This document shows positions 9,473 through 44,330 of a stretch of 64,000 nt of DNA, piece by piece. This DNA comes from a virus. The stretch lies in the IMG/VR virus record IMGVR_UViG_3300029206_000002; one strand, given 5' to 3'. The notes under the pieces are model-generated. The model worked only from the letters and a program-made list of their open reading frames with translations. It was not told the origin of the DNA and ran no database searches. The translations under genes were made by a program, and so were the position numbers. Each line of letters begins with the position of its first letter. Within the stretch, counting starts at the first letter, position 1.

Positions 9473-10427
9473 TTAACCAATTTTTTATTTCTTCAAAGCT
9501 ATTTGCTTTAACAGCATCAGATACATCTTTAGCTTTGAATTTTTTGTTAATAAACATTGCTTCTAAGCCTGTTTCTCGGCTTAATTTGCGACTTCTTTTT
9601 ACTCCAGCTACATCTCTATCAAAAAGTATTATAATACGCTTAAAACGCGTCTTAAGTTGCTCTAATACGTCTTTAGGTAGAAATGTACTCTCTGAAGATG
9701 GAGAAACTGCTGGTATACCCATCTCATGCAAACACATAACATCTTTCATGGACTTTGTGATAAATAATATATCACCTTTCTGAGGCAACTGCTCATAGCC
9801 TTGGATATCATAGTCTGTAAGATTGTTTCTCCATTTAGTATATTTATCTGCTAATGGTCTATATATCTTAAAGTTATTATAGACCTTATATGCATACATT
9901 GGATTTTCTCGTTTATAAGTACCCTTTACTATGCCATTACATAAATAATATTTAATACTATTTACATTGAATTTCTTTAGAGTATTTATAGAAATATTGA
10001 ACTGTTTCCAGTAATTGATATCTACATCAGTAAATTCTTGACGTACTACACCAATTACTGTTTCAGTTGGCGGTATATATTGCTTAGAGCTAACGAGTTT
10101 AGTGTTATTAGTAATGTTTAACTTATCTACTATATCAGATAGTATATCATTATATTCTGTCTTACCAGTAAATAATGATACAAATTTAATTACATTACCA
10201 CATTCACCTGTTCCATGATCTTTAAAAAGTAGTTGTTTAGTACGTTTACTATAGTAAATACCAAAGGATGGATTTTTATCCTTCCTAAATGGACTATTGT
10301 ATATCATACCTACTTTAAATTGACCTATATATTTTGCATATATATCATATTCTGTTACTTTAGAAAGTATCCAATCTAGAGTAATGTTATCTGGGAGTTT
10401 TGCTCGCTTTCTACTATACATATGCAA
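9447..10427 (-). CDS. DNA primase, DnaG-like (zinc-binding-like N-terminus + TOPRIM)
   Basis: SPFRKDKNPSF and GTGECGNVIKFV resemble the DnaG zinc-binding-domain motifs. IILFDRDVAG is a TOPRIM DxD motif. Confidence 0.65.
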   Translation of the reverse strand: MHMYSRKRAKLPDNITLDWILSKVTEYDIYAKYIGQFKVGMIYNSPFRKDKNPSFGIYYSKRTKQLLFKDHGTGECGNVIKFVSLFTGKTEYNDILSDIVDKLNITNNTKLVSSKQYIPPTETVIGVVRQEFTDVDINYWKQFNISINTLKKFNVNSIKYYLCNGIVKGTYKRENPMYAYKVYNNFKIYRPLADKYTKWRNNLTDYDIQGYEQLPQKGDILFITKSMKDVMCLHEMGIPAVSPSSESTFLPKDVLEQLKTRFKRIIILFDRDVAGVKRSRKLSRETGLEAMFINKKFKAKDVSDAVKANSFEEIKNWLNETIKNYR

Positions 10428-20124: not shown

Positions 20125-20225
20125 ATATACTTGATTTTAATAATTTGACAATTAGTTAATTACATAGTATATTAGAAAGTCTACCTGTGTAGTTAATAGA
20201 CCGATCAAAGTCTAATAACTTAAAA

Positions 20226-20253
20226 TATCAGCTATCTTCACAGACCGCTGATA
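20226..20253 (-). promoter_or_regulatory. conserved-loop hairpin, copy 1 (loop TATCTTCACAGAC)
   Basis: TATCAGC-tatcttcacagacc-GCTGATA, followed on the minus strand by ATTTTAAG. Confidence 0.5.
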
Positions 20254-20393
20254 TGAATAACAATAAAATTAAGAAATAAGACAGACAAGATCAAAGAGTT
20301 AGCGCCTCTGTCACATCTCGATACGGCATCCGATTCTTCTTCTCTCGGCTTTCCAACACTTAGTTACCTTAGTAACATTATCAGAGGCAAGTA

Positions 20394-20496
20394 AGTAAGA
20401 GTATATACGAACCCAACCAAATGTATATACTCTTACTGATTTTATGTTGATTTTCAATTATTTTCTACTCAATACGAACCCAACCAAATGTATATA
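20394..20496 (-). repeat. two copies of a 25-nt element ATACGAACCCAACCAAATGTATATA; copy 1 sits in a 15-bp-stem hairpin
   Basis: Copies at 20405-20429 and 20472-20496. Copy 1 forms stem 20394-20408/20423-20437 with loop GAACCCAACCAAAT. Confidence 0.55.
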
Positions 20497-20501
20497 TTCG
20501 A

Positions 20502-21063: not shown

Positions 21064-21642
21064 TTACTCGTCAATGCTCTTGTAGTAAGCAGTAGTGTCG
21101 TCCTTAGTAATCTTATTGATTTGTTCCAGAGAAGCTCCCTGATTTGCCAATTCATCAATAAAATTGTTAAGATCAGTCAAATTACTCTGATTCAACTGAG
21201 TGACAACTTCTGTTACCATCTTAACATTCCAGAACGGAGACCGTTCTCCAGTTGCTTCAAACTTCAAGATAGCATCTTGAACATCTTTCGGACCAGCTTT
21301 CAATACGATATCTACATCTGCCCGTAAATCAAACTGCAACTTTTCGTCATTATTAAACATAATAACAATCTTACCATTTGCAGTCCGCACGATATCTACG
21401 TTGAACAAATCAACAGTTTCAATCATATACTTCTTCATCGGATTTGCAAGTACAAGACCCGGCATATCACCAGCTAGTTTCTTCTTGTAATTCAAATCCA
21501 AATAATCACTTACGGGGATTGCCAACCGCCGACCAACTAAAGCACGGCTAAACGCAATTACTTTAGTACGTAACTGAGTAATTTCTTGCTGAGTAAAACC
21601 TTCTGGATTTTTGAACACGCTTTCATATTTTGTTGTTTCCAT
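21064..21642 (-). CDS. hypothetical protein
   Basis: 192-aa ORF, with AGGAG 8 nt upstream of the ATG. Confidence 0.5.
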   Translation of the reverse strand: METTKYESVFKNPEGFTQQEITQLRTKVIAFSRALVGRRLAIPVSDYLDLNYKKKLAGDMPGLVLANPMKKYMIETVDLFNVDIVRTANGKIVIMFNNDEKLQFDLRADVDIVLKAGPKDVQDAILKFEATGERSPFWNVKMVTEVVTQLNQSNLTDLNNFIDELANQGASLEQINKITKDDTTAYYKSIDE

Positions 21643-21649
21643 AATTTCT

Positions 21650-23795
21650 CCTTTCTTGATTCCGTGGTTGATTCCACCTATGGAGTAAGTTAATACTAAG
21701 TTAATTTAAAAAGTAAGCTATAGAGTTCTTTTATCTAAGTGGAATAGCATCTAATATCTATTCGTTTATTAAAAACTTAAAAACCACTTCTTGTATTCAA
21801 ACAGTAAAACTCTATAACGAAATTCTGCTAAGATTTGATAAGTAATCTGAAAAACTATAAGATAAGCTTTCGTATTATTAACATTACTACTAGAACGTGA
21901 TGTTATTACTTCACTCGGCATTCCCCGTAGGACTTTACTCATGAGACAGATGAGTCAGCCGTTCTTCATAAAATTATCAATACTAAACTATGAAAAGATA
22001 TGTAATTCGACATCTGAAAATCGAATGCTATGCTAGTTAATACCTAAAAAGGTACAACGGGACTCCAACGGTAGGAGATTTATACCCATCAAATAACATT
22101 ATAACTGAAATTATCTGAAAATCGAATGCTATGCTAGTTTCTGATTGTTTAAAGAGCCTAACAGTAACTATAACGTGCTCTTTTTCCTGTTATAGTAAGG
22201 AGTACTGTATATGGTTCATAACCTACAACTGTTACTTCACTATCGGTAATACTTCTACCGAATTTTATTTTGAGCTGTTTATGTTTCAAAACACCCACTC
22301 TATAGCCTAATAGTTTATTCTAAGGCTGCGTGTACTTACGACTTTGTTCTTATTCTGCACATAACTTTAGGATTTCCACCTATCATCCTTTAATGTAAGG
22401 AATCAGCGTCACTTTACATATATTGTTGCGCAATATACTTTAAATGTTTCAAATGTCAGCAATTATATTGTACAGTCGAGGGTGGCTCGGATTTACTTTC
22501 GTCTTCTTATCACTACTCGTCCTAAAACCTACCATTGAACTTCCTCATTAGTTAAATTAAACATGTTTATTCTCTCGTGAATAGAGACTTCCTAAATAGA
22601 TTTACATTCTGTCACTTCCCGTTAAGACTACTATTTAGTGCAATGCACAGATTTTTCTCCGGTCTGCTTCGTGTCCGTCTCTTAATGTGTCTGCTTCTCT
22701 TCAACCTAGGAGTAGGGCGATGCTCACTTTCACATATACTCTTAAGGATAGAGTATCGCACCTTGTGCAAATTTGATAAAACTCCAGTTATGCTTCTGGA
22801 TAAAATTATTTAGTACTTCTAAGCTTTATGTCTTCCGCTTAGTATTGAAATAGTGTTATTGCGCACTTCATCCGCTAGTTATCTTTATGTTCCTGTTGCA
22901 AAGCACTCTAGGTTTATACTCAGATAAGATAACAACTGAGTTTATTATAATACTACTTGAATTCACATACTCCTTATTTCCTAAAGAGGTCCGTTGCAGG
23001 ATTCCTTATTTATTAATATCGGATCATTGCTACTCAGCCAATAGGCACACAATCTACTACTCACTTTGTCACTCTATCCCTCTATACTGGAGTGTATAGT
23101 AATACAAGCTTAGGATTAGCTATGTACTGATTAACATAACATTGTGCATAGGCTTTACGCCTAATCCAGGTAATCTATCAATATTTTTTCAATAAGTAGT
23201 GCTATAATATTATAATTAAGTACCTTCATATATACTATCTCTAAACTTATTAAGTTACAATATAACTGTTTAGATAAGTATAGAACACTATACTGACATT
23301 TTTATATAGTCTATGCTATAAAGGGGAGTTTGGAGCTACCCTAGAGCGTTATATGCTCGATAATGTTCAGCACGTAGTCTTGGACACTACGATTTGTTGG
23401 GCATCATCGTGTTTATTACTCCTTCTTGATTCAAACTATGATAAGTCTGCGAGTAACTTAAGAGGATTTCGTTCCCCTTGTACTGTTTAATTTTGTAGAC
23501 TGCTCTCTACTAATTGCGTCTTCTGTTTCTGTCTCCAGTCGGTTCTCACCAAAAACAAGAGGGTTGTACACGCTCTCCCTCTATCTTATTGCCTCTTCAG
23601 TTTATAGATAGTATATAAACACAATAAGTTATTATACTTTCAGTAATAGCCTATAGTTGTAGCTATACTCTATTCCTACTAATATTCTGTACTATCTTAA
23701 TTTTAAGAAAGCAATCTAACCATTTACTTTCTAATCCTTTGATTTAGATATCTCTGGATATACACCATTATAGCTCTATAATCGCATTGGCTGTT
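21650..23795. other. 2.1-kb ORF-free region with shifted base composition (candidate structured RNA/origin region)
   Basis: Standard translation gives no ORF above 80 aa on either strand. The plus strand is pyrimidine-rich here, unlike the flanks, and the region contains long direct repeats. Confidence 0.4.
22012..22139. repeat. 27-nt perfect direct repeat ATCTGAAAATCGAATGCTATGCTAGTT x2
   Basis: Copies at 22012-22038 and 22113-22139, 101 nt apart. Confidence 0.7.
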
Positions 23796-24194
23796 CTAGT
23801 TGCGACTCAGATTTATCTTCTCTGATTGTTGTTGTTTCAGTCTTTGGAGAATATCCGTACAAGTGGTTTTATTCTCTTTAACTGATGGCAGTTCTCTTAC
23901 CTTAATGTATTTAGGTACTTCCTTCTCTACAACAGAAGTTAGATAGATGATACTGTCTTTCTTTTTGATTTCAACATTGATATTTTGTTCTGGGTTGCTT
24001 TGTCCATTTAATTTTATAGCGTTATTGTTCAAATTAATATCAATATTAAAGTCTTTTGTCCGAGGTACATCTGTGAACTTCGGAATCACATACTCGTGTG
24101 CGGTGGCGGTATTTGTATAGTTAGTTACAAATCCTACATATCCACCGAAAGCTAGCATTGCTAGCGTAAACAAAACTGTTGGTTTTTTACTCAT
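23796..24194 (-). CDS. hypothetical secreted/membrane-anchored protein (terminates with TAG)
   Basis: N-terminal hydrophobic segment MSKKPTVLFTLAMLAFGGYVGFV; stop codon is TAG. Confidence 0.5.
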   Translation of the reverse strand: MSKKPTVLFTLAMLAFGGYVGFVTNYTNTATAHEYVIPKFTDVPRTKDFNIDINLNNNAIKLNGQSNPEQNINVEIKKKDSIIYLTSVVEKEVPKYIKVRELPSVKENKTTCTDILQRLKQQQSEKINLSRN

Positions 24195-28691: not shown

Positions 28692-28875
28692 AAGTAGTTT
28701 CTTTAATTGAAGATCTAAGTCTTTCTATAGCTGCCAACAGTGTATCTATTCTTATTACTACTTCTGTGTCTCTAACAAAATGTTTAATATGTTTCAGATT
28801 AGTAATCATACCAGCTAAAAGCATAAGAGATAGGTTTCTTCTACTTGCCTTTAATTGATTTAAAGTCTTTTTCAT
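28672..28875 (-). CDS. hypothetical small protein
   Basis: 67-aa ORF whose ATG overlaps the upstream TGA as ATGA. Confidence 0.4.
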   Translation of the reverse strand: MKKTLNQLKASRRNLSLMLLAGMITNLKHIKHFVRDTEVVIRIDTLLAAIERLRSSIKETTYESWSA

Positions 28876-29186
28876 CTACAAAATGTTTTTAAGTATTGTT
28901 CATAATATCTTTTTTCATTTATTGAAGCTAAAGCATCTAATTGATTATAATTCTTTTTAGTTAAAGTAAAATCATAATCTAATAATGCTTCTTTTAGACT
29001 GTAAAATACATTATAATCAAACAAATCTCTGTTGCTTATTTTGATTTGTTCAATGAGAGCTGTTTCAAATATAGCTAGTAATCTTAGAATATATTTATTA
29101 TTCTTTTTGACTGCTAGTCATAAACCTTTATCTCCTTTATTATAATCTAAAGGAATAATTGATACCTTGTTATAATCTATTCTCAT
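28872..29186 (-). pseudogene. 104-codon gene with one in-frame TGA (codon 23): readthrough/recoded gene or nonsense-disrupted gene
   Basis: ATG at 29186-29184 overlaps the upstream stop as ATGA. The same frame is open to TGA at 28874-28872, which overlaps the next ATG as ATGA. The only interruption is TGA at 29120-29118. Absent from the ORF track. Confidence 0.45.
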
Positions 29187-29734
29187 ACTCTAAAGTTTGT
29201 TTTATAATACTTTTTAATAATTCTTATAGCTTCATCAAATTCTTCTTTATTATCAAAAACATTACAAAAGGTGTAGCCATTCTTGTTTAAGAATATAGGA
29301 TGAAAATAAGCTACAAAGAATGTTTTAAATAATCTACTCTTTTTAATAGGAATTAAATTATCTAAAGTAATATCACTAGTTATACTTACTGTCCAAGCAA
29401 TATTTAGTTCAGGATCTATTTTATAGATTACTCCATAGTGTGCACTTGGACCTATTTTCGCTCTAATGATGTCATATTTTTGTAAAGGTATTTGATCTAT
29501 ACCTTGACCTAATATTTCTGTAGGTAAAACTATATTCTGTTTAGGAACACATGAAGATTGTTCAATTAAACTAGTAGATAAAGATGAACTAAATGCATCT
29601 ACTATACTTATTACATCTAATATTTTATTATCATCTGTATTTTTTAATTTAGAAGATGCTTTAGATCTTACAGAGTTTAAAAAGTTCTCTTTTTCTTCGA
29701 CAGATTTTTCTTTTAATAAATCTAATATGCTCAT
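29183..29734 (-). CDS. hypothetical protein
   Basis: 183-aa ORF. Confidence 0.5.
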   Translation of the reverse strand: MSILDLLKEKSVEEKENFLNSVRSKASSKLKNTDDNKILDVISIVDAFSSSLSTSLIEQSSCVPKQNIVLPTEILGQGIDQIPLQKYDIIRAKIGPSAHYGVIYKIDPELNIAWTVSITSDITLDNLIPIKKSRLFKTFFVAYFHPIFLNKNGYTFCNVFDNKEEFDEAIRIIKKYYKTNFRV

Positions 29735-29762
29735 ACTTTTTGTTTTTAATTTTGATAATTTG

Positions 29763-29836
29763 TAATACTAATAGGACTCGAACCTATAACTCAACCTTAT
29801 CAGTGTTGTGATGTTACCCGTTACATCCATAGTATT
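29763..29836 (-). tRNA. tRNA-Ile (anticodon GAU)
   Basis: Folded by hand: acceptor AATACTA/TAGTATT, D-arm GATG-taacgggtaa-CATC, anticodon arm CAACA-ctGATaa-GGTTG, T-arm ATAGG-TTCGAGT-CCTAT, discriminator A; 74 nt. Confidence 0.65.
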
Positions 29837-30056
29837 TCTTAACCAGCTTTTTACGACATTAGCTTAGCCGTTGACTTATCATATCACGCTGCAATATGAG
29901 TATAGTCTGTTACAAAAGATTTGTCATTTCTGACGTTATTGACCTATTCATTACTGTTTCTGCCAATCAATACATACATACCCCCTTGTTATTATTCTAT
30001 AGTGGAGGTAGAGTCGGCGAAGACTCGTCTTGCTCAGGCATATAATGACCTAACAG

Positions 30057-30443
30057 TCAATATACTTTTATTTCTATAGGATTATCTCCAAAACACATAT
30101 TTCTTTTATCAAATGGTACATAATGAGTATATAAGAATCCTGCATCATTAAATAGTTTAGCCGTACCTATTGGTACACTAATAGAATTATTATGTTTTGG
30201 ATCTATCCACCAACTTCTTTTTGTTGTTTCATGAACATATCTAACAGGTTTATTATAGAATAGATGTTCACCCCACATATCTGCTGCAATATAGCTCATG
30301 ATAAATAATTTTAAGTTGTAAATATAAAGAGTTTTGCACACCTCTGCGCCTTCATATCCTAGCAGACCGGATAACGCCTCAATTAGAGAGATATACATCA
30401 TACACGAGTTTTCATATATCATTGGGTTGATATAATAGTGCAA
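30057..30443 (-). CDS. hypothetical protein
   Basis: 128-aa ORF. Confidence 0.45.
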   Translation of the reverse strand: MHYYINPMIYENSCMMYISLIEALSGLLGYEGAEVCKTLYIYNLKLFIMSYIAADMWGEHLFYNKPVRYVHETTKRSWWIDPKHNNSISVPIGTAKLFNDAGFLYTHYVPFDKRNMCFGDNPIEIKVY

Positions 30444-30479
30444 TATACTCTTTTAGTAGTATAGAGAGTGATCAAACTC

Positions 30480-30965
30480 TCTATACTTGATATGTAATCC
30501 TAAAGTAATAGTATATACTGTTGATTATGAGCATAAAAGCATTAAATCTAGTATATAATAGCATAAAGCTGCTATTACTTTAGAATTTATAGTCTTTGAC
30601 AGAATACATATTATACCAAGTGCTCATCTAGCAAGCTAGAGACTCGATTGAAATATAGACATAAAAGTACTATATGTATATGTATTTTGATATACTTACT
30701 GTTTTTCGTCTATAAGACTATTCTTCAGGATTCTCCCCGAGAATCATTACCCTTGGAGCATAAAGCATACGGGGTGAAGAAACGATCTACTATAGCACAT
30801 GATCAGTAGGCATGTATTCCTATTATTAGCATAAAAGCATTAAATAGAACTGTCAATTCAGTTCGATCTACCCGAACTCCTTAATGCGACAATACGACTT
30901 ATATAGTTTGCGGTTAGACTTTTATTCTATTTTAGCATAAAAGCATTTAGAATACGGATGTTGAT
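30480..30965. repeat. intergenic region with 3 copies of TTAGCATAAAAGCATT(A/T)A and shorter AGCATAAAGC variants
   Basis: Copies at 30530-30547, 30828-30845 and 30933-30950; variants near 30561 and 30757. Confidence 0.55.
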
Positions 30966-31414
30966 TAAAGATAGATATTTTCGTATCTTGAACCAAAGAC
31001 TTCTTCTTTCGCTTTTGCGATAGCGTCATCTTTCTTGTCTGTAAGTTCTGAATACTTTTTGTCCCAAGCTTTGTAATCACCTGTAGATTCAAATTCAGCT
31101 TGAGCTTTCTTCAGTCCTTCAGAAAAGTCTTTCATAATGTTCTTGTGTTTTGATGCAAAACGTCCGTATCTTTCTGCTCTAGAAACAGCTTTTTCACAAT
31201 CCTGAATTCTACGTTTTACTTCACGAGATTCACGTTCAAGTTGTTCTTGTTGGATCTGTTTCTTTGCTTCAGTAACTGCTGATGCTTCAACTTTACCGTC
31301 TTTTTCTTCTTGTTTTTTCATACCAGCTTCAAAGTTGTAATTTTCATCAGTTGCTTTGTCACGTAACATTGCTACACCTAACATAATTGCAGTTAATTTC
31401 ATAAAATTCTTCAT
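30965..31414 (-). CDS. hypothetical secreted coiled-coil protein
   Basis: N-terminal signal-like MKNFMKLTAIMLGVAML followed by a charged helical region. Confidence 0.45.
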   Translation of the reverse strand: MKNFMKLTAIMLGVAMLRDKATDENYNFEAGMKKQEEKDGKVEASAVTEAKKQIQQEQLERESREVKRRIQDCEKAVSRAERYGRFASKHKNIMKDFSEGLKKAQAEFESTGDYKAWDKKYSELTDKKDDAIAKAKEEVFGSRYENIYL

Positions 31415-31925
31415 AATTTTTTGATTTTTAATTGTTAATAATTGATTTATTTAAGTGAATGAATTAATCTTAAAAAGTATCTAATAAGCTTCTGCGATAG
31501 ATTTCATCTCTTTCTTCTTTGATATCTATTTGCATTTTAATGATAATACTTATTAGTTCTTCTTTTGTTTTCTTTTTTAATTCTTTTTTTGTCCACATAA
31601 TAGTAAAGAAATAGAAAGTTATACTATCTATTCGTACGCCTTATTCGATAGCTAGCCCTTTTCCTTCTCCTGACCTTAAATAAGGTTGACCGTTGTATAG
31701 TCCGTAGGTATTAATCACCTTTAGGGGTCTGGCGTTATAACCTTCTGTGTTGATTGGATTCTATCATAACTACTTAATTAGTAATTCTTAGTTAAACAAT
31801 AGCTCTTTCCCTTTTATACGGTTGCATTTTAGAATGTCTAACTCTCTTTTTAGACTGATATTCAGCTGCTTTTCCTGATTGCTTAGAACCTGGAAAATGA
31901 GATTCTTTATAGGTCTTTCCCATGA

Positions 31926-32315
31926 TTATAACACTCTAATTGCTTGTACTAAAAGGTCAAAGATATAAGCGCATCCCTTTTTGTTGAGATACTCGATTGT
32001 AACTTCTTTTTCATCCAGCATCATCTCAATTTGTGGTCTAGTTAACTTACCATCTTCAATTAATTTCCAAAAATTGGCATTAATTGCAGCGATATTCATT
32101 AGACCAGCTGCTGTACACACAGTAATAACATCTTTCAAGATGTTTTCAATCATTTGTTTATTTGAAGAACTAGTTACAAATTTACTTGTTTCAAGTATTT
32201 CTGTATGTACTTCTGATAAACCAAGTTTTTTAGCCATAAGAGCTACTGCTGTTACAACACTTTCCTGATTAATTGATGCAGGAATTCCAATAATTACAAA
32301 GTTTAAAGATTTCAT
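31926..32315 (-). CDS. hypothetical protein
   Basis: 129-aa ORF. Confidence 0.45.
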   Translation of the reverse strand: MKSLNFVIIGIPASINQESVVTAVALMAKKLGLSEVHTEILETSKFVTSSSNKQMIENILKDVITVCTAAGLMNIAAINANFWKLIEDGKLTRPQIEMMLDEKEVTIEYLNKKGCAYIFDLLVQAIRVL

Positions 32316-32326
32316 TTGATATGAAT

Positions 32327-32596
32327 TTAAAGTTGTTTATAAATTTCTTGGCTATAGTACTTACCGCATCTTTCACAGTAAGTTCTTTTAGTAATAGGAA
32401 TGTTTAATTCATTGTTATTAGGCTCATTTTTCCATTTGTGCCCATGAATTAAACATTGTGAACGTAATGCAACTTCTTTTTGCTTTTTAGGATTGTCTAA
32501 TAATTCTAATTCAGCAAGTCGTTTAATGTTACTATGATAGGCTTTTAGCCTTCTGTAACTACTGATTTTCAGTTTGATTTTCTTAAAAATATTCAT
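32327..32596 (-). CDS. hypothetical zinc-ribbon protein
   Basis: CLIHGH...CERCGKYY. Confidence 0.4.
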   Translation of the reverse strand: MNIFKKIKLKISSYRRLKAYHSNIKRLAELELLDNPKKQKEVALRSQCLIHGHKWKNEPNNNELNIPITKRTYCERCGKYYSQEIYKQL

Positions 32597-33019
32597 TCTT
32601 TCATATTTAATAGTTTTAATTATACAATATTTTGAGGACGTCTAGCTGCAACTAGATGGTTTTATCAATCTTAATTATATATTAACACACAATTTTTACT
32701 GTACGCTTACAGTAAATAAAGAAGGTATGTAACAATTTATACAATATATTGCAGTATATTGCAGGCTTGACGATTCACATCGTTGTGTAACTTCTACACT
32801 AATACAGCTTAATTGAAATACTAATTAAAATGACTCTCACTTAGTTTTAACTCATAAGCAGATATAGCTGTCAAACTAATCTTATTGGAGTACATGGTTT
32901 TAACGTCTGCACTAATACTAATCTCCTCCACCTACCTTCAGACGACAGTAATACTGCCCTCTAAAATGATTAGATATAAGCCCCACATGTTTGTCACTGA
33001 TTCTCACAGTAAAGACGGC

Positions 33020-33045
33020 TACTTCTATCTTCACAGACTAAAGTA
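33020..33045 (-). promoter_or_regulatory. conserved-loop hairpin, copy 2 (loop TATCTTCACAGAC)
   Basis: TACTT-ctatcttcacagacta-AAGTA, 17 nt downstream of the stop of gene 33062..33484 (minus). Confidence 0.45.
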
Positions 33046-33061
33046 ACCTTCTCTTTTTACT

Positions 33062-33484
33062 CTAATAATTAATGGCTTGGTGAATTGTATCACTATTAAT
33101 TTGTGGTAATGAGGACCTTGGCATACTATCTGGTATATATTCTTTTTGTATATCCATACTCCTCTTTATTAATTTATCATAAAAGTCTTTATTACTAATA
33201 TAAATAGAAACAATTTCATGATTTGATAAATCTGTACCTTTAGTAACAAGTATTTGAGTTAGTACTTGTTCTGGCATAACCAAGAATACACTATCTACAT
33301 ACTTGTCTAATCTCATATTTTCACGCCATTGTAGCACTTCTTGTACTGTTGGTGCTACTACTTGTTCAATTGTGTCCGTTTCAGGGATTTGTTTTTCTTT
33401 AGGACTACGAGGTCTTGCACAACTGATAAAAATTGCTAATGCTACTATTGCTGCAATTAGCCAAAATACGTATTTACTTTTCAT
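33062..33484 (-). CDS. putative lipoprotein
   Basis: N-terminus MKSKYVFWLIAAIVALAIFISCA (signal peptide plus lipobox-like ISC). Confidence 0.45.
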   Translation of the reverse strand: MKSKYVFWLIAAIVALAIFISCARPRSPKEKQIPETDTIEQVVAPTVQEVLQWRENMRLDKYVDSVFLVMPEQVLTQILVTKGTDLSNHEIVSIYISNKDFYDKLIKRSMDIQKEYIPDSMPRSSLPQINSDTIHQAINY

Positions 33485-33617
33485 TTTTGATAAATGTTTT
33501 TAAGTTAACACTAAGTATATAAATGCTATCAATATTGCATCTATTACAATTAATACTCTTGTTACTGGATGTGTTTCATACCAGTTTTCAAATTTATCCC
33601 ACCATATGTCTGCTAAA

Positions 33618-33875
33618 TCAGCTTGGTTTGATTTCTTTGTATCCATCGTCTTTATCTTTATATCCACTACCAAGTGTATATACAAAAGATAATACGCAGA
33701 ATATAAATAGTGCGATTATCACTACTTTAGAGTAATACCAATAATTCCAGTAATCGGTATATAACAGTCCGTACACTTCTTCATCAAAGAAATATATTCC
33801 TTGATGTTCAATAATCATCACAGCTGCAAATAATGCAGTTATGAGTCCAAATAAAAAATACATTAACTTTTGCAT
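33618..33875 (-). CDS. small membrane protein with two predicted TM helices
   Basis: 85-aa ORF that overlaps ORF 33500..33685 in another frame. Confidence 0.4.
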   Translation of the reverse strand: MQKLMYFLFGLITALFAAVMIIEHQGIYFFDEEVYGLLYTDYWNYWYYSKVVIIALFIFCVLSFVYTLGSGYKDKDDGYKEIKPS

Positions 33876-33953
33876 AATAATTATTTATTGATTAAATACT
33901 ATTTGCTACAAATACTATTGTTACTACTATTGCTAATAATATTAGTAAGTATA

Positions 33954-34271
33954 CTAATAATCTGATAGTAATAACAATGCGCCAGAATCGTTCATTTCCC
34001 ATATACTTTTATACTTATTGTTGAGTTTTTGCCAAAAATGATGTCCTTCTTTTGTATGTCTCCATATAAGTGTACATTCAATTGCCATACTAGGAACTCT
34101 TAATTTTGTATAAAATGGTTCTAGGTTTATTTTTTTATCGTGAGCATATTTACTACTGCCGTCTAAAAAGCTATCTAATACTTTTTCTTTAATAAGAAAC
34201 GTAAGCAATAAATAAGGCATATTAAATAATATTTGCCTTCTGACTTTTTGTTGTTCTGTTAACTTTTTCAT
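33954..34271 (-). CDS. hypothetical protein
   Basis: 105-aa ORF. Confidence 0.4.
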   Translation of the reverse strand: MKKLTEQQKVRRQILFNMPYLLLTFLIKEKVLDSFLDGSSKYAHDKKINLEPFYTKLRVPSMAIECTLIWRHTKEGHHFWQKLNNKYKSIWEMNDSGALLLLSDY

Positions 34272-34570
34272 TGATTGAATTGTACTTTTTTATGAACTTT
34301 AAATGTTACTTCAGTATCACTTTTAACTTCAATGGTAAAATGAGGAGATGATTTACTATCTATTCTTCGTTTGATCCATTTAACTACGTAATCCGCAGTT
34401 AATACTTCAAATTGCAAATAGCTACGCCATTTTCCACTCTTACCGATGTGTAGTTTTAGATTTCCTCTGTCAATATTAGTAACAGGGTTAACGCGACTTT
34501 GTTTTGAGTTAACTAATTTAGCTACTACTATGTCGCCGATTTTAAGATTCTGAAATTGTTCTAATGTCAT
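34268..34570 (-). CDS. hypothetical protein
   Basis: 100-aa ORF with ATGA overlap. Confidence 0.4.
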   Translation of the reverse strand: MTLEQFQNLKIGDIVVAKLVNSKQSRVNPVTNIDRGNLKLHIGKSGKWRSYLQFEVLTADYVVKWIKRRIDSKSSPHFTIEVKSDTEVTFKVHKKVQFNQ

Positions 34571-35057
34571 TTGATAAAGTTTTAAGTTTATTGTTTAAAT
34601 TTTCAATAGTTCCTAATAAATCTTTTAGTATATGTTTACTCTTCTGTAACTCTATAAGATCCTTTCTATGAATAATGACAAATTCTTCTTTTAGTGCTTC
34701 TTCAATTGTAACTGAAGTGTTAGTTGTACTTCTATTTATTGACTCAAGTTTTTTGTTTTCAGGTTTAATTGATATATCATGTTCAAAGGTTTTGTCATTA
34801 ATTTGACAAGTAAACGATACGTCAGAAAGTGCTATTTTTAGTTTCTTAAACATATCTTCTTCTGTATATTTATCAGGAAAGTCTAGTTCAAAATCTATGG
34901 CTCTAAAGTAAACTAGTTCTGCTATGTATGCAATATCTAGCAGGTTATTAGTTTCTTGCATAGGTATGCTAAAATACCTATTCATATATTTTATGATTTT
35001 GTTTCTTTCTTCTTTTGTGTTCTTAATTGCAAAAGATATTGTTACTAATTGTTGCAT
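34542..35057 (-). CDS. hypothetical protein
   Basis: 171-aa ORF. Confidence 0.45.
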   Translation of the reverse strand: MQQLVTISFAIKNTKEERNKIIKYMNRYFSIPMQETNNLLDIAYIAELVYFRAIDFELDFPDKYTEEDMFKKLKIALSDVSFTCQINDKTFEHDISIKPENKKLESINRSTTNTSVTIEEALKEEFVIIHRKDLIELQKSKHILKDLLGTIENLNNKLKTLSNDIRTISES

Positions 35058-35398
35058 ATACTTTAGTTTATTGATTAAACATATAAAGAGGACAGCTAAC
35101 GCTGTCCCCTACTATTTACGTATAGTTACGTTGTCATTCTTTGTTCATCTAATGACAGATGCTCAGAACTATTTTTCAAATCTAAAATAGTGAAAACTCC
35201 TTCATACTGAGTTTAGATAGTGCTTACAATAATCGTACCACACACTACGATGATACTAATACTACATGTAGTTGGCTCTGCATTTACAGGCTTGCCACTG
35301 TCTATGGCTGCATTACTATTGTAGTATAAATAACTCTAAGTTAGTTTGAATACATCTTGCTAAGAGTTCGTACTTTCTGATAAAGTGTTTTCTTGTTT

Positions 35399-35674
35399 TC
35401 ATAATGTTGATTTTAATGGAAATTTGTTTTTATTATGTTTTATATACTTTAAAACATTCAAATAATTATTAGCATTTAAGAAACAAAGCTTACACATAGA
35501 TATATCTGCACAAGGCTTATAATAAGCGCAACTACTTCTATTATCATGTGCTCTTATAGCACATAAATTTGTAAGTTCAAGTTTGCTTATTTCTTTATAA
35601 GCTTTCTTAGACTTTAATACTACTCCACTTTGTATTATATTGTCTATCATTACTGGTTTAATTAATTTAGTCAT
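35399..35674 (-). CDS. hypothetical Cys-rich small protein
   Basis: CAIRAH...CAYYKPCADISMCKLC. Confidence 0.4.
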   Translation of the reverse strand: MTKLIKPVMIDNIIQSGVVLKSKKAYKEISKLELTNLCAIRAHDNRSSCAYYKPCADISMCKLCFLNANNYLNVLKYIKHNKNKFPLKSTL

Positions 35675-35712
35675 TTCATTTTATCTTAATTTAAGTTAAT
35701 AATCAGTTTAAA

Positions 35713-35740
35713 ACACTACTATCTTCACAGACTGTAGTGT
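35713..35740 (-). promoter_or_regulatory. conserved-loop hairpin, copy 3 (loop TATCTTCACAGAC)
   Basis: ACACTAC-tatcttcacagact-GTAGTGT, about 40 nt upstream of the start of gene 35399..35674. Confidence 0.5.
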
Positions 35741-36392
35741 GTGGTTAAGTAATAATAAAGTAAAGGATAGTATGGCTGTATCCTTACAATATAGAAATAA
35801 ATAATTAGCATTTTACACCTAAAACTTATATCGCAAGGAGTATGTTCGACCTCTCATGCGTAACATATAAGAAACTGGTGTCCTCAATGTCTTGGAAAGT
35901 TATTGAGTTTTTTAAAAAGCATCTGTTTTTCTAGATTGCTTTAAACTCTTATATTAAGAGTTTACTATCTTAATACCTAGGATAAGATAGTAGATTATTT
36001 AAAATAATAGTATAATCTTCCAAAACTATACTATTATTTTGTGTTATCAACACTCACTATTACACACAGTAGCTAATTGTGTTTATTTAGTGACTAGATT
36101 CATAGTGGAAATGATTCCTTATGAGAATCCTACTTACTAGCTAGACTCTTGCGCTCGATACCGTTATTTATAATAACAATATTTTTCACAATCGAGGGTC
36201 TTATTTCTCGGCAACTCCTACTTTATATACTTGATCAGTATGTATATATCTATGCTTCTTACTTTCTGAGTGAGTTTGCGATTCTCAGATTTCATATTTT
36301 CTATTACCACGCATAGGCTAATTAGAAGAGCCTAATTAAATTATGTTAGAATAACATAATTTTGCACAGTTTGTTTAGTTAATAAATGACTA

Positions 36393-36431
36393 ACCAGTCT
36401 GTGACTAACTTCTGGTTAGTCTTAATTTAAT
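36393..36431. promoter_or_regulatory. 10-bp-stem hairpin GACTAACCAG...CTGGTTAGTC with internal GACTAAC repeat
   Basis: Seen directly in the 800-nt intergenic region 35700-36480. Confidence 0.4.
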
Positions 36432-36485
36432 TGCTAGTCTTTACAGCGCTAGCTCTCTGTTTAGTTACTATAAAGATAATCAAAT

Positions 36486-36719
36486 CTAGATAGTATTGTT
36501 AATTCTATTAAGATAGGATATTACTATTACTGTAAATAATATTGTATCAATCTTTATCGTTATATTTTGCATACGTATATAGTCATACATATTTGTTATT
36601 GTTGCCAAATCGTCTACATTTTTAATAAACGTAATTAATACAAATAATATAAATATTGATATAGCACAACATCCTAATAATATTATAATTTGTGTTATAT
36701 TATTTATAAGCTTTATCAT
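36486..36719 (-). CDS. hypothetical small membrane protein
   Basis: 77-aa hydrophobic ORF. Confidence 0.35.
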   Translation of the reverse strand: MIKLINNITQIIILLGCCAISIFILFVLITFIKNVDDLATITNMYDYIRMQNITIKIDTILFTVIVISYLNRINNTI

Positions 36720-37070
36720 ACTTTATCTAATAGTAATAATATTATCCATAGAATAAATTGACCAAGTACCACAATCAATGTTAATAGTGTCATTAAATTG
36801 TTTTTTTGTCTTTTATCCATCTCTAATTTTATATTAAATCCCATTCAATTAACGCTTCGATTGGTGACATACCTTGTTTGATGCATTCGGTTACTTCTGC
36901 TTCAAGATGATATTCTTTTGCTATTATGAGAGCTTCACTAACTGTAATTTTTGGTGTTTCCATAATATATATTTTTATTGATAAATAAAATTGCTATAAT
37001 GGTGACTCAATTGGTTTGAAACGGTAAACCATAGCTCCCACAGTTAGACTGCAAGAGCTATATATTAGGT

Positions 37071-44255: not shown

Positions 44256-44330
44256 TCTCCTGTGATGTAAAGGTAACATACTGAGCTCTAACCTCAGAAT
44301 TGTCCGTTCGAGTCGAGACCGGGAGGACCA
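44256..44330 (+). tRNA. amber suppressor tRNA (anticodon CUA, reads UAG); class-I, isotype unresolved
   Basis: Folded by hand: acceptor TCTCCTG/CGGGAGG (U1.G72 and U6.G67 wobbles), U8, D-arm ATGT-aaaGGta-ACAT, anticodon arm CTGAG-cTCTAac-CTCAG, 4-nt variable loop, T-arm GTCCG-TTCGAGT-CGAG(A)AC with a bulged A, discriminator A, CCA encoded. A terminator follows at 44386-44425. Confidence 0.75.

Follow-up and report, generated by a model that had tools for sequence, protein, structure and literature searches.

A conserved ORF-free island of crAss-like phages is a candidate gene for a very large, multi-domain structured RNA

We lean towards reading an ORF-free island of 2153 nt in a crAss-like phage as a minus-strand gene whose product is a structured non-coding RNA of very large size with several domains, a reading based on sequence comparison. 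A large structured RNA had been one of several candidates in an earlier reading of this DNA (the sequence-only reading), and it is supported by the family-wide size and position of the island, by purifying selection, by compensatory changes and by pseudoknots. Transcription of the island would proceed on the minus strand, as it does for the early/middle genes around it. A core of about 1.45 kb (23696-22236) would then fold into at least three domains, D1, D2 and D3, with many short helices, at least three pseudoknots, hairpins resembling GNRA and T-loop motifs, and long-range helices that are nested. On its 3' side, this core would give way to 0.6 kb of exchangeable structured modules (A, B and C).

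The source phage shares about 98% identity with cr6_1 (Suoliviridae, Afonbuvirus faecalis). No member of the Suoliviridae had been brought into culture by 2023 (PMC10136315). Phages of Prevotella/Segatella that could supply a phage-host pair are now being reported. Within the 64,000 nt analysed (the window), the island extends from the start of the minus-strand gene 21064..21642 to the stop of 23796..24194 and is flanked by homologues of hypothetical proteins of about 130 and 190 aa. Neither flanking protein had a match in Pfam, PHROG or PDB sequences that would suggest an RNA partner. The island lies directly upstream of the replication block (192-aa gene, then DNA polymerase), in the same orientation as the genes, and a phage sigma-factor gene is located about 2.6 kb upstream of it. 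As the sequence-only reading had claimed, no ORF above 80 aa occurs on either strand; the longest have 78 and 70 aa and none reaches 80 aa. By our own rough estimate, random sequence of such composition would also give about 2.1 kb free of ORFs. What is unusual is that 2.1 kb are non-coding at all in a gene-dense phage genome, and that this is so in all relatives. The claimed shift in base composition turned out not to be distinctive. The GC content of the island (0.32-0.37) overlaps that of the flanks (0.28-0.39), and the negative plus-strand GC and AT skews are common to the entire minus-strand gene block from 5.5 to 38 kb. Annotation pipelines leave the locus blank or place spurious small ORFs there; in cr114_1, a 162-nt 'hypothetical protein' is annotated inside the equivalent of the island.

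Related loci, of which more than 279 are sigma-linked, were gathered with sigma-factor alignments. The collection holds 184 distinct sequences and 22 lineages of less than 80% identity. The comparison with related phages that the sequence-only reading had proposed revealed a syntenic, ORF-free gap of 1.95-2.5 kb in every relative examined. These relatives represent four Suoliviridae subfamilies and include cr6_1, cr114_1, cr115_1, cr4_1, cr60_1 and cr55_1. A gap of 1.9-2.3 kb was found in 282 of the 307 fetched loci, and nearly all remaining loci stop short of it. The island retains nucleotide blocks of 75-85% identity despite the divergence of the flanking 192-aa protein, for which identity between subfamilies is only 19-25%. 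A pattern scan of 185,579 species' genomes yielded one real extra match, on a contig of 100.9 kb; it is binned as a Mollicutes MAG and probably represents a phage. Seven further matches were read as chance because the other motifs were missing. The element was thus found only in Suoliviridae crAss-like phages, and no description of it was found in literature searches.

Compensatory changes were analysed in alignments of 19-39 lineages, using MAFFT alignments and simple controls. Strict family-wide helices numbered 12-14 compared with 0-0.7 in column-permuted nulls, controls that ignore phylogeny, and about 30 helices carried compensatory changes. In a cross-validation, the structure derived from 12 sequences held in 27 others, with 61% canonical double changes versus 40% in the control. 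Read in minus-strand orientation, the best helices contained 88 G-U and 9 A-C combinations, which indicates that the RNA lies on the minus strand and runs in the direction of the genes. Local MFE z-scores in sliding windows were uninformative, with an unremarkable island mean of -0.6 versus -1.2 in the flanks. The features of the locus are collected in Table 1.

Table 1. Predicted features of the island and its edges (helices and pseudoknots as 5' arm / 3' arm)
Feature	Position	Strand	Basis or remark
Whole ORF-free island, putative non-coding RNA locus	21643..23795	-	synteny, low variability, no codon periodicity
Near-palindromic ATTATAGAGCTATAATGG	23765..23782	-	just past upstream stop codon
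Domain D1	23415..23696	-	covariation
PK1	23696-23690 / 23613-23607	-	D1
D1 helix	23685-82 / 23637-34	-	
D1 hairpin, loop GCUACAAC	23667-63 / 23656-52	-	
D1 helix	23628-22 / 23591-85	-	
D1 helix	23620-15 / 23605-00	-	
D1 hairpin	23582-77 / 23563-58	-	
PK2	23573-70 / 23519-16	-	loop of hairpin 23582-77 / 23563-58 pairs with 23519-16
Near-invariant UGAGAACCG block in D1	23548-23540	-	
D1 helix	23515-12 / 23492-89	-	
D1 helix	23457-51 / 23421-15	-	
Domain D2	22767..23342	-	covariation
D2 hairpin	23342-23322	-	
LR2, long-range helix	23298-95 / 22830-27	-	span ~470 nt
D2 helix	23294-90 / 23223-19	-	
LR1, long-range helix, 11-13 bp	23216-23204 / 22956-22944	-	span ~260 nt
D2 hairpins	23162-50, 22941-18, 22912-22892, 22872-22847	-	
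D2 hairpin	22800-22783	-	
PK3	22793-89 / 22771-67	-	by eye; loop of hairpin 22800-22783 pairs with 22771-67
Domain D3	22236..22620	-	most conserved primary sequence; conserved blocks and compensatory changes
D3 block GGAAGUUCAAUGGUAG	22544-22529	-	
D3 block GCCACCCUCGACUGU	22487-22473	-	
D3 xGCAA (GNRA-like) hairpin	22438-22418	-	
D3 CGCUGA	22408-22403	-	
D3 T-loop-like UGGAAAU hairpin	22381-22369	-	
D3 hairpins	22297-22271, 22254-22237	-	
3' module A: hairpin GAGCAC...ACUGUUAGGCUC, then UUAAAYAAUCAG	22140..22228	-	recurs in several clades
27-nt direct repeat, copy 2; RNA strand = AACUAGCAUAGCAUUCGAUUUUCAGAU	22113..22139	.	
3' module B: GGG-UAUAWAU-CUCC-UACCGUU-GGAG-U-CCC and variable hairpin with U-run loop	22040..22089	-	
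27-nt direct repeat, copy 1	22012..22038	.	
3' module C: ~85-nt multi-stem element, invariant AGUAAAGUCCUACGGGGAAUGC junction and loop	21882..21972	-	alifold
Conserved leader and ribosome-binding region of downstream 192-aa gene	21649..21693	-	

Two of the pseudoknots, PK1 and PK2, were tested by covariation and the third, PK3, was read by eye. For D1, the alignment fold gave 22 pairs, 18 of them compensatory. With PK1 and PK2 included, D1 comprises 61 pairs (47 compensatory), and 86% of the cells were paired versus 37-46% in slid controls. Double-change cells in D1 amounted to 378, compared with 29-69 in slid controls, and a shuffle test gave 0/500. In D2, 29 of 37 pairs were compensatory, pairing reached 95.1% versus 33-51% in slid controls, and the covariation score was 0.588 versus about 0.1. 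The arms of LR1 differ in sequence from lineage to lineage yet stay complementary, and PK3, as judged by eye, is present in 15 of 19 sequences in 8 sequence variants. In D3, an NGG/CCN helix (GC23/AU11/UA3) ties the two conserved blocks, and an 8-bp hairpin shows compensatory changes. A further candidate helix, 23421-17 / 23287-83, was rejected because 23421-15 already belongs to a strongly supported helix. A tRNA-like reading of the D-loop-like AGUUCAAUGGUAG block together with the T-loop-like hairpin was likewise rejected, as there was no match to the tRNA model. D1 is recognisable in Boorivirinae cr55_1. Loutivirinae have no PK1, and LR1 is not evident there.

No covariation-supported helix joining D1, D2 and D3, or the 5' to the 3' end, was found, and the sole candidate for such a pairing is an invariant GAAC/GUUC pair. 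End-joining helices with a span above 1 kb were rejected, since the top candidates were non-homologous between lineages and did not exceed a block-shuffle null. With no supported helix between domains, the island could be several RNAs. It could thus be an array of independent structured RNAs (for example D1, D2, D3 and modules A-C), each with its own function and perhaps co-transcribed and processed, an explanation that we regard as serious though doubtful. The mobility of the 3' modules speaks for it: modules A, B and C shift place and order between clades, being in altered order in lineage L134, while module C is located within D1 in L137 and directly follows D1 in L268 and L270. Other intergenic gaps of this phage also harbour four or more distinct small RNAs of Rfam families (RAGATH-7-assoc, RAGATH-9, RAGATH-14 and Hatchet). 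In addition, Boorivirinae keep D1, but exact-pattern searches recovered there neither TGAGAACC nor any of the D3 motifs looked for. The architecture of the core argues in the other direction. The order of the conserved D3 blocks and their spacing relative to D1 (900-1020 nt) are constant in all clades, total island length is held at 1.95-2.3 kb in three subfamilies, and the nested 260- and 470-nt long-range helices imply units far exceeding ordinary small RNAs. Conserved internal promoters or terminators were not seen in the island: sigma-70 matches were no commoner than in shuffles, so that no promoter was assigned, and the intrinsic-terminator candidates were pseudoknot or hairpin elements without conserved U-tails, so that no terminator was assigned either. 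A self-cleaving ribozyme that could serve processing was not detected in the island by Rfam searches.

In the reading towards which we lean, the domains would belong to one transcript. The RNA would act in trans as a folded RNA during infection rather than as a regulator of one neighbouring gene, and may serve as an RNA scaffold, assembly or ribozyme, like GOLLD and ROOL. A bolder version, which we hold to be less likely than not, is that a single RNA molecule comprises the whole core or even all 2.1 kb and is an RNA machine in crAss-like phage infection. In this version the machine would be a ribozyme, or an RNA-only or RNP assembly acting on host translation or defence, and would represent a new class unrelated to GOLLD, ROOL, OLE or introns.

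A long cis-acting leader or spacer of a polycistronic middle transcript, controlling stability, processing or translation of the downstream replication genes, appears improbable to us. The orientation of the island and its place directly upstream of the replication block would suit such a role, and so would the conserved 44-nt leader that adjoins the downstream start codon. This leader shares 91% identity over 44 nt with Boorivirinae cr55_1 and cr1_1 and is probably not part of the RNA. A conserved, pseudoknotted structure of 1.5-2 kb, however, far exceeds the needs of any known leader. Moreover, the stretch closest to the downstream gene (21602-21801) is the fastest-evolving and least conserved of the island, and over 600 nt separate the conserved core from the start codon. 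At the opposite edge, relatives show a TATA..CTAYAAT-like motif at the position of ATTATAGAGCTATAATGG, of which no second copy occurs in the window; this site is a possible promoter or boundary element.

The 3' modules are structured in their own right. Module B occurs in 68 places, with 17 distinct sequences among them, and its second hairpin shows covariation; a reading of it as a terminator was rejected because the U-run is the hairpin loop. Module C shows compensatory changes in its alifold structure, had no Rfam match, and its covariance model R1 finds one copy per genome with up to 113 bits. Module B is enclosed by the 27-nt repeat ATCTGAAAATCGAATGCTATGCTAGTT. In agreement with the sequence-only reading, exactly two perfect copies occur in the window, at 22012 and 22113 and hence 101 nt apart; two such copies in 64 kb are far beyond chance. 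The prominence given to the repeat did not survive comparison with relatives. Only relatives with at least about 97% identity have it in perfect form, and lineage L042 has three copies, which corresponds to one extra 101-nt unit. The repeat is a lineage-specific tandem duplication flanking module B, outside the conserved core, and in the proposed scheme would be the scar of that event.

This direct repeat with its varying copy number, together with a non-coding stretch adjoining replication genes, might point to a DNA-level element, such as a replication origin (as the sequence-only reading had considered), a packaging site or terminal-repeat region, or a protein-binding platform. We consider this very unlikely and largely contradicted by the data. 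The compensatory changes, the 88:9 excess of G-U over A-C and the pseudoknots indicate selection on a single-stranded RNA fold, cumulative GC skew changes direction at the strand switches (about 5.5 and 38 kb) and nowhere else, so that the island shows no inflection, and the repeat is confined to one lineage in two copies.

Substitution patterns bear on the coding alternatives. Among close relatives, the fraction of variable sites was 0.08-0.125 in the island versus 0.12-0.24 in most flanking-CDS windows. Island substitutions were spread over the codon phases as 68/62/67 (p=0.85), compared with 75/41/203 and 16/7/78 in neighbouring genes, and a third-position bias was absent from every 300-nt window of the island. 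An island less variable than its flanks and free of codon periodicity is constrained but non-coding in any code, and these comparisons indicate purifying selection stronger than on the flanking genes. The decayed gene that the sequence-only reading had listed does not fit an island that is more conserved than its coding neighbours and that stays ORF-free where flanking proteins share only about 20% identity. Hidden coding sequence with a recoded stop, frameshifts, intron-split exons or many micro-ORFs is contradicted and scarcely credible: the phage encodes a suppressor tRNA(CUA), TAG is apparently recoded in its late genes, and delta-group crAss-like phages have group I introns in core genes (PMC7886860), but all three stop codons are dense in six frames, recoding of TAG, TGA, TAA or combinations gives no convincing ORF (118 aa at most with TAG or TGA recoded), and the flanking ORFs are complete, separately conserved proteins.

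The Rfam/Infernal scan for introns, riboswitches and ncRNAs, also proposed beforehand, assigned no family to the island. Neither cmscan of the whole window at gathering thresholds nor searches at E<=10 over the full island (21500-23900), nor those of three sub-stretches under laxer filter settings, matched any family inside it, intron models included. Matches to snoRNAs, IMES-1 and REN-SRE were dismissed as noise, as all were far under their thresholds. ARAGORN detected no tRNA in the island, its window tRNAs being only at 29762 and 44256, and the Rfam tRNA model likewise had no island match. The GOLLD and ROOL covariance models had no match in window, island or sub-stretches, even at E<=10.

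By description, the putative island RNA would nevertheless belong to the large ornate phage ncRNAs, being phage-encoded, with many covariation-supported helices and pseudoknots. Its closest analogues may be GOLLD and ROOL, with which it shares phage origin, a very large size for a non-ribosomal RNA, dense covarying helices, several pseudoknots and no associated protein gene of known function. ROOL is about 580 nt long. GOLLD exceeds 800 nt, and both occur in phages near tRNA genes and form RNA nanocages (PMC12286853). In relatives of our phage, tRNA genes likewise lie 1-1.5 kb downstream of the island. The division into a universally conserved half and a variable one is shared with GOLLD (PMC12286853); the conserved part is 5' in the island, in contrast to 3' in GOLLD. 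The island is also about 2-3 times longer (core 1.45 kb, locus 2.15 kb), and GOLLD and ROOL are homo-oligomeric RNA-only assemblies. Covarying palindromic loops mark homo-oligomers in GOLLD and OLE. The RAGATH and Hatchet RNAs share genome, strand, location in early/middle-block gaps and a structured nature with mostly unknown function. However, they are single motifs of 125-230 nt, none matches inside the island, and the island exceeds them in size about tenfold and has long-range helices that close domains. Group I and II introns, common in delta and zeta crAss-like phages, are likewise large structured phage RNAs. Unlike them, the island is not inserted in a gene, its two flanking ORFs being distinct, and has no homing-endonuclease or maturase ORF. 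A more speculative analogy is the ColE1 RNA II primer and phage origin transcripts, also structured transcripts adjoining replication genes; the island is 3-4 times longer than RNA II and has no origin signature, skew inflection included.

In summary, a candidate structured RNA locus has been identified that matches no Rfam family and of which literature searches found no description. Very large structured RNAs have repeatedly proved to be ribozymes or unexpected assemblies. With an example of 1.5-2 kb, the sizes reached by such RNAs would extend two- to three-fold; if it is one molecule, no structured non-ribosomal RNA known from a phage or bacterium would be larger. The locus offers a concrete, sequence-rich target for cryo-EM, probing and metatranscriptomics. 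In all four sampled subfamilies, about 2% of the genome is taken up by this element, which is under tighter conservation than the neighbouring proteins and is therefore very likely important for infection.

The interval 21500-23900 matched uncultured phage cr6_1 (NC_055894.1; Crassvirales, Suoliviridae, Bearivirinae, Afonbuvirus faecalis) over its full length with 98.2% identity, and the corresponding region of that record has no annotated gene. All genes from ~5.5 to 38.3 kb lie on the minus strand. As the sequence-only reading had stated, the island contains no sizeable ORF (longest 78 and 70 aa in 2153 nt), and the perfect 27-nt direct repeat is present at positions 22012 and 22113; the rest of the window has no further copy. 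The shifted composition also claimed proved weak: the GC ranges of island (0.32-0.37) and flanks (0.28-0.39) overlap, and the island's negative GC and AT skew extends over the entire minus-strand block. No Pfam, PHROG or PDB-sequence relatives of the flanking proteins were found.

Island and other features located in the window
Feature	Position	Strand	Remark
Island	21643-23795 (2153 nt)	minus-strand block	start codon of 192-aa gene to stop codon of 132-aa gene
192-aa gene	21064..21642	minus	island boundary (start codon)
132-aa gene	23796..24194	minus	island boundary (stop codon)
PK1 (pseudoknot)	23696-90	minus	pairs inside loop of helix 23620/23600
PK2 (pseudoknot)	23582-58 / 23519-16	minus	D1; conserved loop AGAGCGUG of hairpin 23582-58 with GACGC at 23519-16
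LR2 (long-range helix)	23298-95 / 22830-27	minus	span ~470 nt
LR1 (long-range helix)	23216-04 / 22956-44	minus	11-13 bp helix
D3 conserved elements		minus	primary sequence: GGAAGUUCAAUGGUAG, GCCACCCUCGACUGU, CGCUGA, xGCAA hairpin, T-loop-like UGGAAAU hairpin
Module A	22228-22140	minus	recurs in other clades
Module B	22089-22040	minus	recurs in other clades
Module C	21972-21882	minus	recurs in other clades
tRNA-Ile	29762-29836	minus	intergenic gap
RAGATH-7-assoc	30326-30453	minus	intergenic gap, Rfam
RAGATH-9	31612-31757	minus	intergenic gap, Rfam
Hatchet ribozyme	32892-33016	minus	intergenic gap, Rfam
RAGATH-14	35989-36219	minus	intergenic gap, Rfam
Suppressor tRNA, anticodon CUA	44256-44330	+	ARAGORN, called tRNA-Pyl

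Coding in a non-standard code or frame had been proposed for the island. Its six frames are densely interrupted by all three stop codons, and reassignment of TAG or TGA opened no ORF longer than 118 aa. Codon phase was analyzed in an alignment of 19 relatives (89-97% identity). Variable sites by codon position numbered 75/41/203 in the 571-aa gene, 16/7/78 in the 192-aa gene and 23/10/62 in the sigma factor, a strong position-3 bias in each. Island substitutions were unbiased, both overall (68/62/67, p=0.85) and within every 300-nt sub-window. Per 200 nt, the variable-site fraction was 0.08-0.125 in the island versus 0.12-0.24 in most flanking-CDS windows; fast evolution (0.24) was limited to the final 200 nt before the downstream gene. 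Low variability and missing codon phase thus identify the island as a constrained non-coding element. A decayed gene is ruled out, since the island is less variable than most coding neighbours and lacks codon bias. An origin of replication was not borne out either, the cumulative GC skew turning only at two strand switches.

The island is conserved in related phages. A 1.85-2.5 kb gap was found at the same position in annotated genomes of three further subfamilies (Uncouvirinae cr114_1 and cr115_1, Loutivirinae cr4_1 and cr60_1, Boorivirinae cr55_1). It is flanked by the ~130-aa and ~190-aa protein homologues, and the sigma-factor gene lies a few genes upstream of it. Using the 571-aa protein and three sigma-factor alignments, we collected 306 related loci (IMG/VR contigs and five annotated GenBank records). 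With the window itself, 282 of the 307 loci had a largest same-strand ORF-free gap of 1.9-2.3 kb; nearly all others stop short of the gap. Clustering of the 184 distinct island sequences at 80% identity left 22 groups. The island keeps blocks that are 75-85% identical in nucleotide sequence, although the flanking 192-aa protein shares just 19-25% identity between subfamilies. Blastn against 50,697 phage records gave matches in only 16; those with names belong to the cr series, and the taxonomy was Suoliviridae in every case looked up. In a motif scan of 185,579 prokaryotic species (one genome each), the element was found only in a 100.9-kb contig assigned to a Mollicutes MAG (MSHB01000026.1, 100,908 bp; 'MAG: Mollicutes bacterium Phil14'). 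This contig carries the RNA core motifs in the correct order, is as long as a crAss-like genome and probably comes from a phage binned in error. In cr114_1 (locus L002, 5596-5757), a 162-nt 'hypothetical protein', gp096, is annotated within the homologous island and is most likely not a genuine ORF. Immediately before the start of the 192-aa gene, 44 nt (21649-21693) with the hairpin GGUGGAAUCAACCAC and AAGGAG share 91% identity with Boorivirinae cr55_1 and cr1_1, unlike the highly divergent 192-aa proteins, and may serve as a conserved leader or in translation control.

Covariation upheld the proposed large structured non-coding RNA. Stacked covarying pairs in a 40-sequence alignment formed 12 helices, compared with ~0.7 in column-permuted controls, and a stricter windowed scan gave 14 non-redundant helices versus 0. 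Windowed RNAalifold returned ~30 helices with compensatory changes from 23685 to 22236, and no family-wide helices in 22236-21810. Read on the minus strand, the best helices had 88 G-U pairs versus 9 A-C mismatches (leaving out two single positions, constant A-C and simply unpaired). Therefore, the RNA is co-directional with the genes. In a non-circular test, structures predicted from 12 Bearivirinae-side sequences were scored on 27 Uncouvirinae and Loutivirinae sequences. Among cases with both partners changed relative to the training pair, 61% were still canonical versus 40% in slid controls, in which pairing partners are displaced. Local folding energies of the island were unremarkable.

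The core (23696-22236) comprises at least three domains. For D1 (23696-23415), the alignment fold of 39 sequences had 22 pairs, 18 of them compensatory. An extended structure made by hand has 61 pairs in 13 helices, with 86% paired cells (37-46% slid), 378 double-change cells (29-69) and a covariation score of 0.385 (0.07-0.09) reached by 0 of 500 shuffles. D1 holds two pseudoknots, and one position of PK2 shows all four Watson-Crick combinations (CG 23, AU 10, GC 3, UA 1). D2 (23342-22767) has 37 pairs, 29 compensatory, in 19 non-Loutivirinae sequences, with 95.1% paired cells versus 33-51% slid and a covariation score of 0.588 versus ~0.1. The arms of LR1, the same element as inverted repeat I5 found in the window, are complementary throughout although their sequence differs in nearly every lineage. 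Hairpin 22800-22783 looked like a terminator, but its loop pairs with 22771-67 to form a third pseudoknot, PK3, read by eye in 15 of the 19 sequences in eight sequence versions. Primary-sequence conservation is strongest in D3 (22620-22236). Alifold recovered only 11 pairs there, 9 compensatory, because MAFFT aligns clades poorly in this domain. The D1 block UGAGAACC and the D3 block GGAAGUYCAAUG are 900-1020 nt apart in every clade.

The 27-nt repeat is explained by the modular make-up of the 3' 0.6 kb. Modules A, B and C are each structured, with covarying stems and invariant loops, and have 70-94% identity in other clades; their order differs in L134. The covariance model of module C found exactly one copy per genome (up to 113 bits), within D1 in L137 and right after D1 in L268 and L270, and none in Loutivirinae or cr55_1. 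The two 27-nt copies lie exactly on either side of module B, a third copy in L042 (~9770-10010) represents one additional 101-nt unit of module B plus repeat, and the repeat is imperfect in 88-94% relatives. Thus it marks a recent tandem duplication that affected a peripheral module, and it is not an iteron. The L042 variant, a module C copy with a ~65-nt insertion in L239 (12627-12781) and a module-C-like element inserted within D1 of L137 (5860-5934) are structural polymorphisms of the RNA. The ~2.1-kb gap of L270 (IMGVR_UViG_3300045988_075635, Uncouvirinae-like) failed to align with the other gaps in either D1 or D3 and gave a weak module-C match (34 bits); it may hold a replaced or highly divergent version.

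Rfam 15, which includes GOLLD, ROOL, RAGATH, ribozyme, intron and tRNA models, gave no match at E<=10 to the whole island or to three sub-regions scanned with laxer filters. ARAGORN detected no tRNA there. GOLLD and ROOL are large pseudoknotted phage RNAs near tRNA genes; they lack a protein partner and form RNA cages (PMC12286853). They are the nearest analogues, but the element belongs to neither family. All entries of a phage structured-RNA catalogue are <=151 nt (PMC10690425). An ncRNA at this locus is mentioned neither in that catalogue nor in a crAss-like genome survey (PMC7886860) or the 2023 Crassvirales review (PMC10136315), and keyword searches of the literature found none described.

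Elsewhere in the window, the Rfam scan detected RAGATH-14, RAGATH-7-assoc, RAGATH-9, Hatchet and two tRNAs. On the minus strand, tRNA-Ile, Hatchet and the three RAGATH RNAs lie in intergenic gaps (320-811 nt) within 28692-37070, and the phage is unusually rich in structured RNAs. RAGATH-7-assoc overlaps the mechanically called ORF 30057..30443, which may not be genuine. Downstream of the tRNA(CUA), standard-code ORFs of plus-strand genes beyond ~45 kb are fragmented. Both features fit TAG reassignment in late genes, which has been described for delta-group crAss-like phages. In a 377-nt intergenic gap (20125-20501), two copies of a 28-nt direct repeat with 96% identity lie at 20405-20432 and 20472-20499 (spacing 67); no tRNA was detected in the gap, and cr114_1 and cr115_1 have tRNA-Leu at the corresponding position.

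The product of the locus may be a single RNA of 1.5-2.1 kb or several RNAs in fixed order. No supported pairing that links D1, D2 and D3 to each other, or one island end to the other, was found in the alignments. A single multi-domain RNA carrying exchangeable modules at its periphery is favoured, with only moderate confidence, because order and spacing are constant, total length is conserved, long-range helices are nested and conserved internal terminators are absent. In summary, the island is a genuine non-coding RNA locus under strong constraint and with abundant structure, new as far as available libraries show and unusually large.
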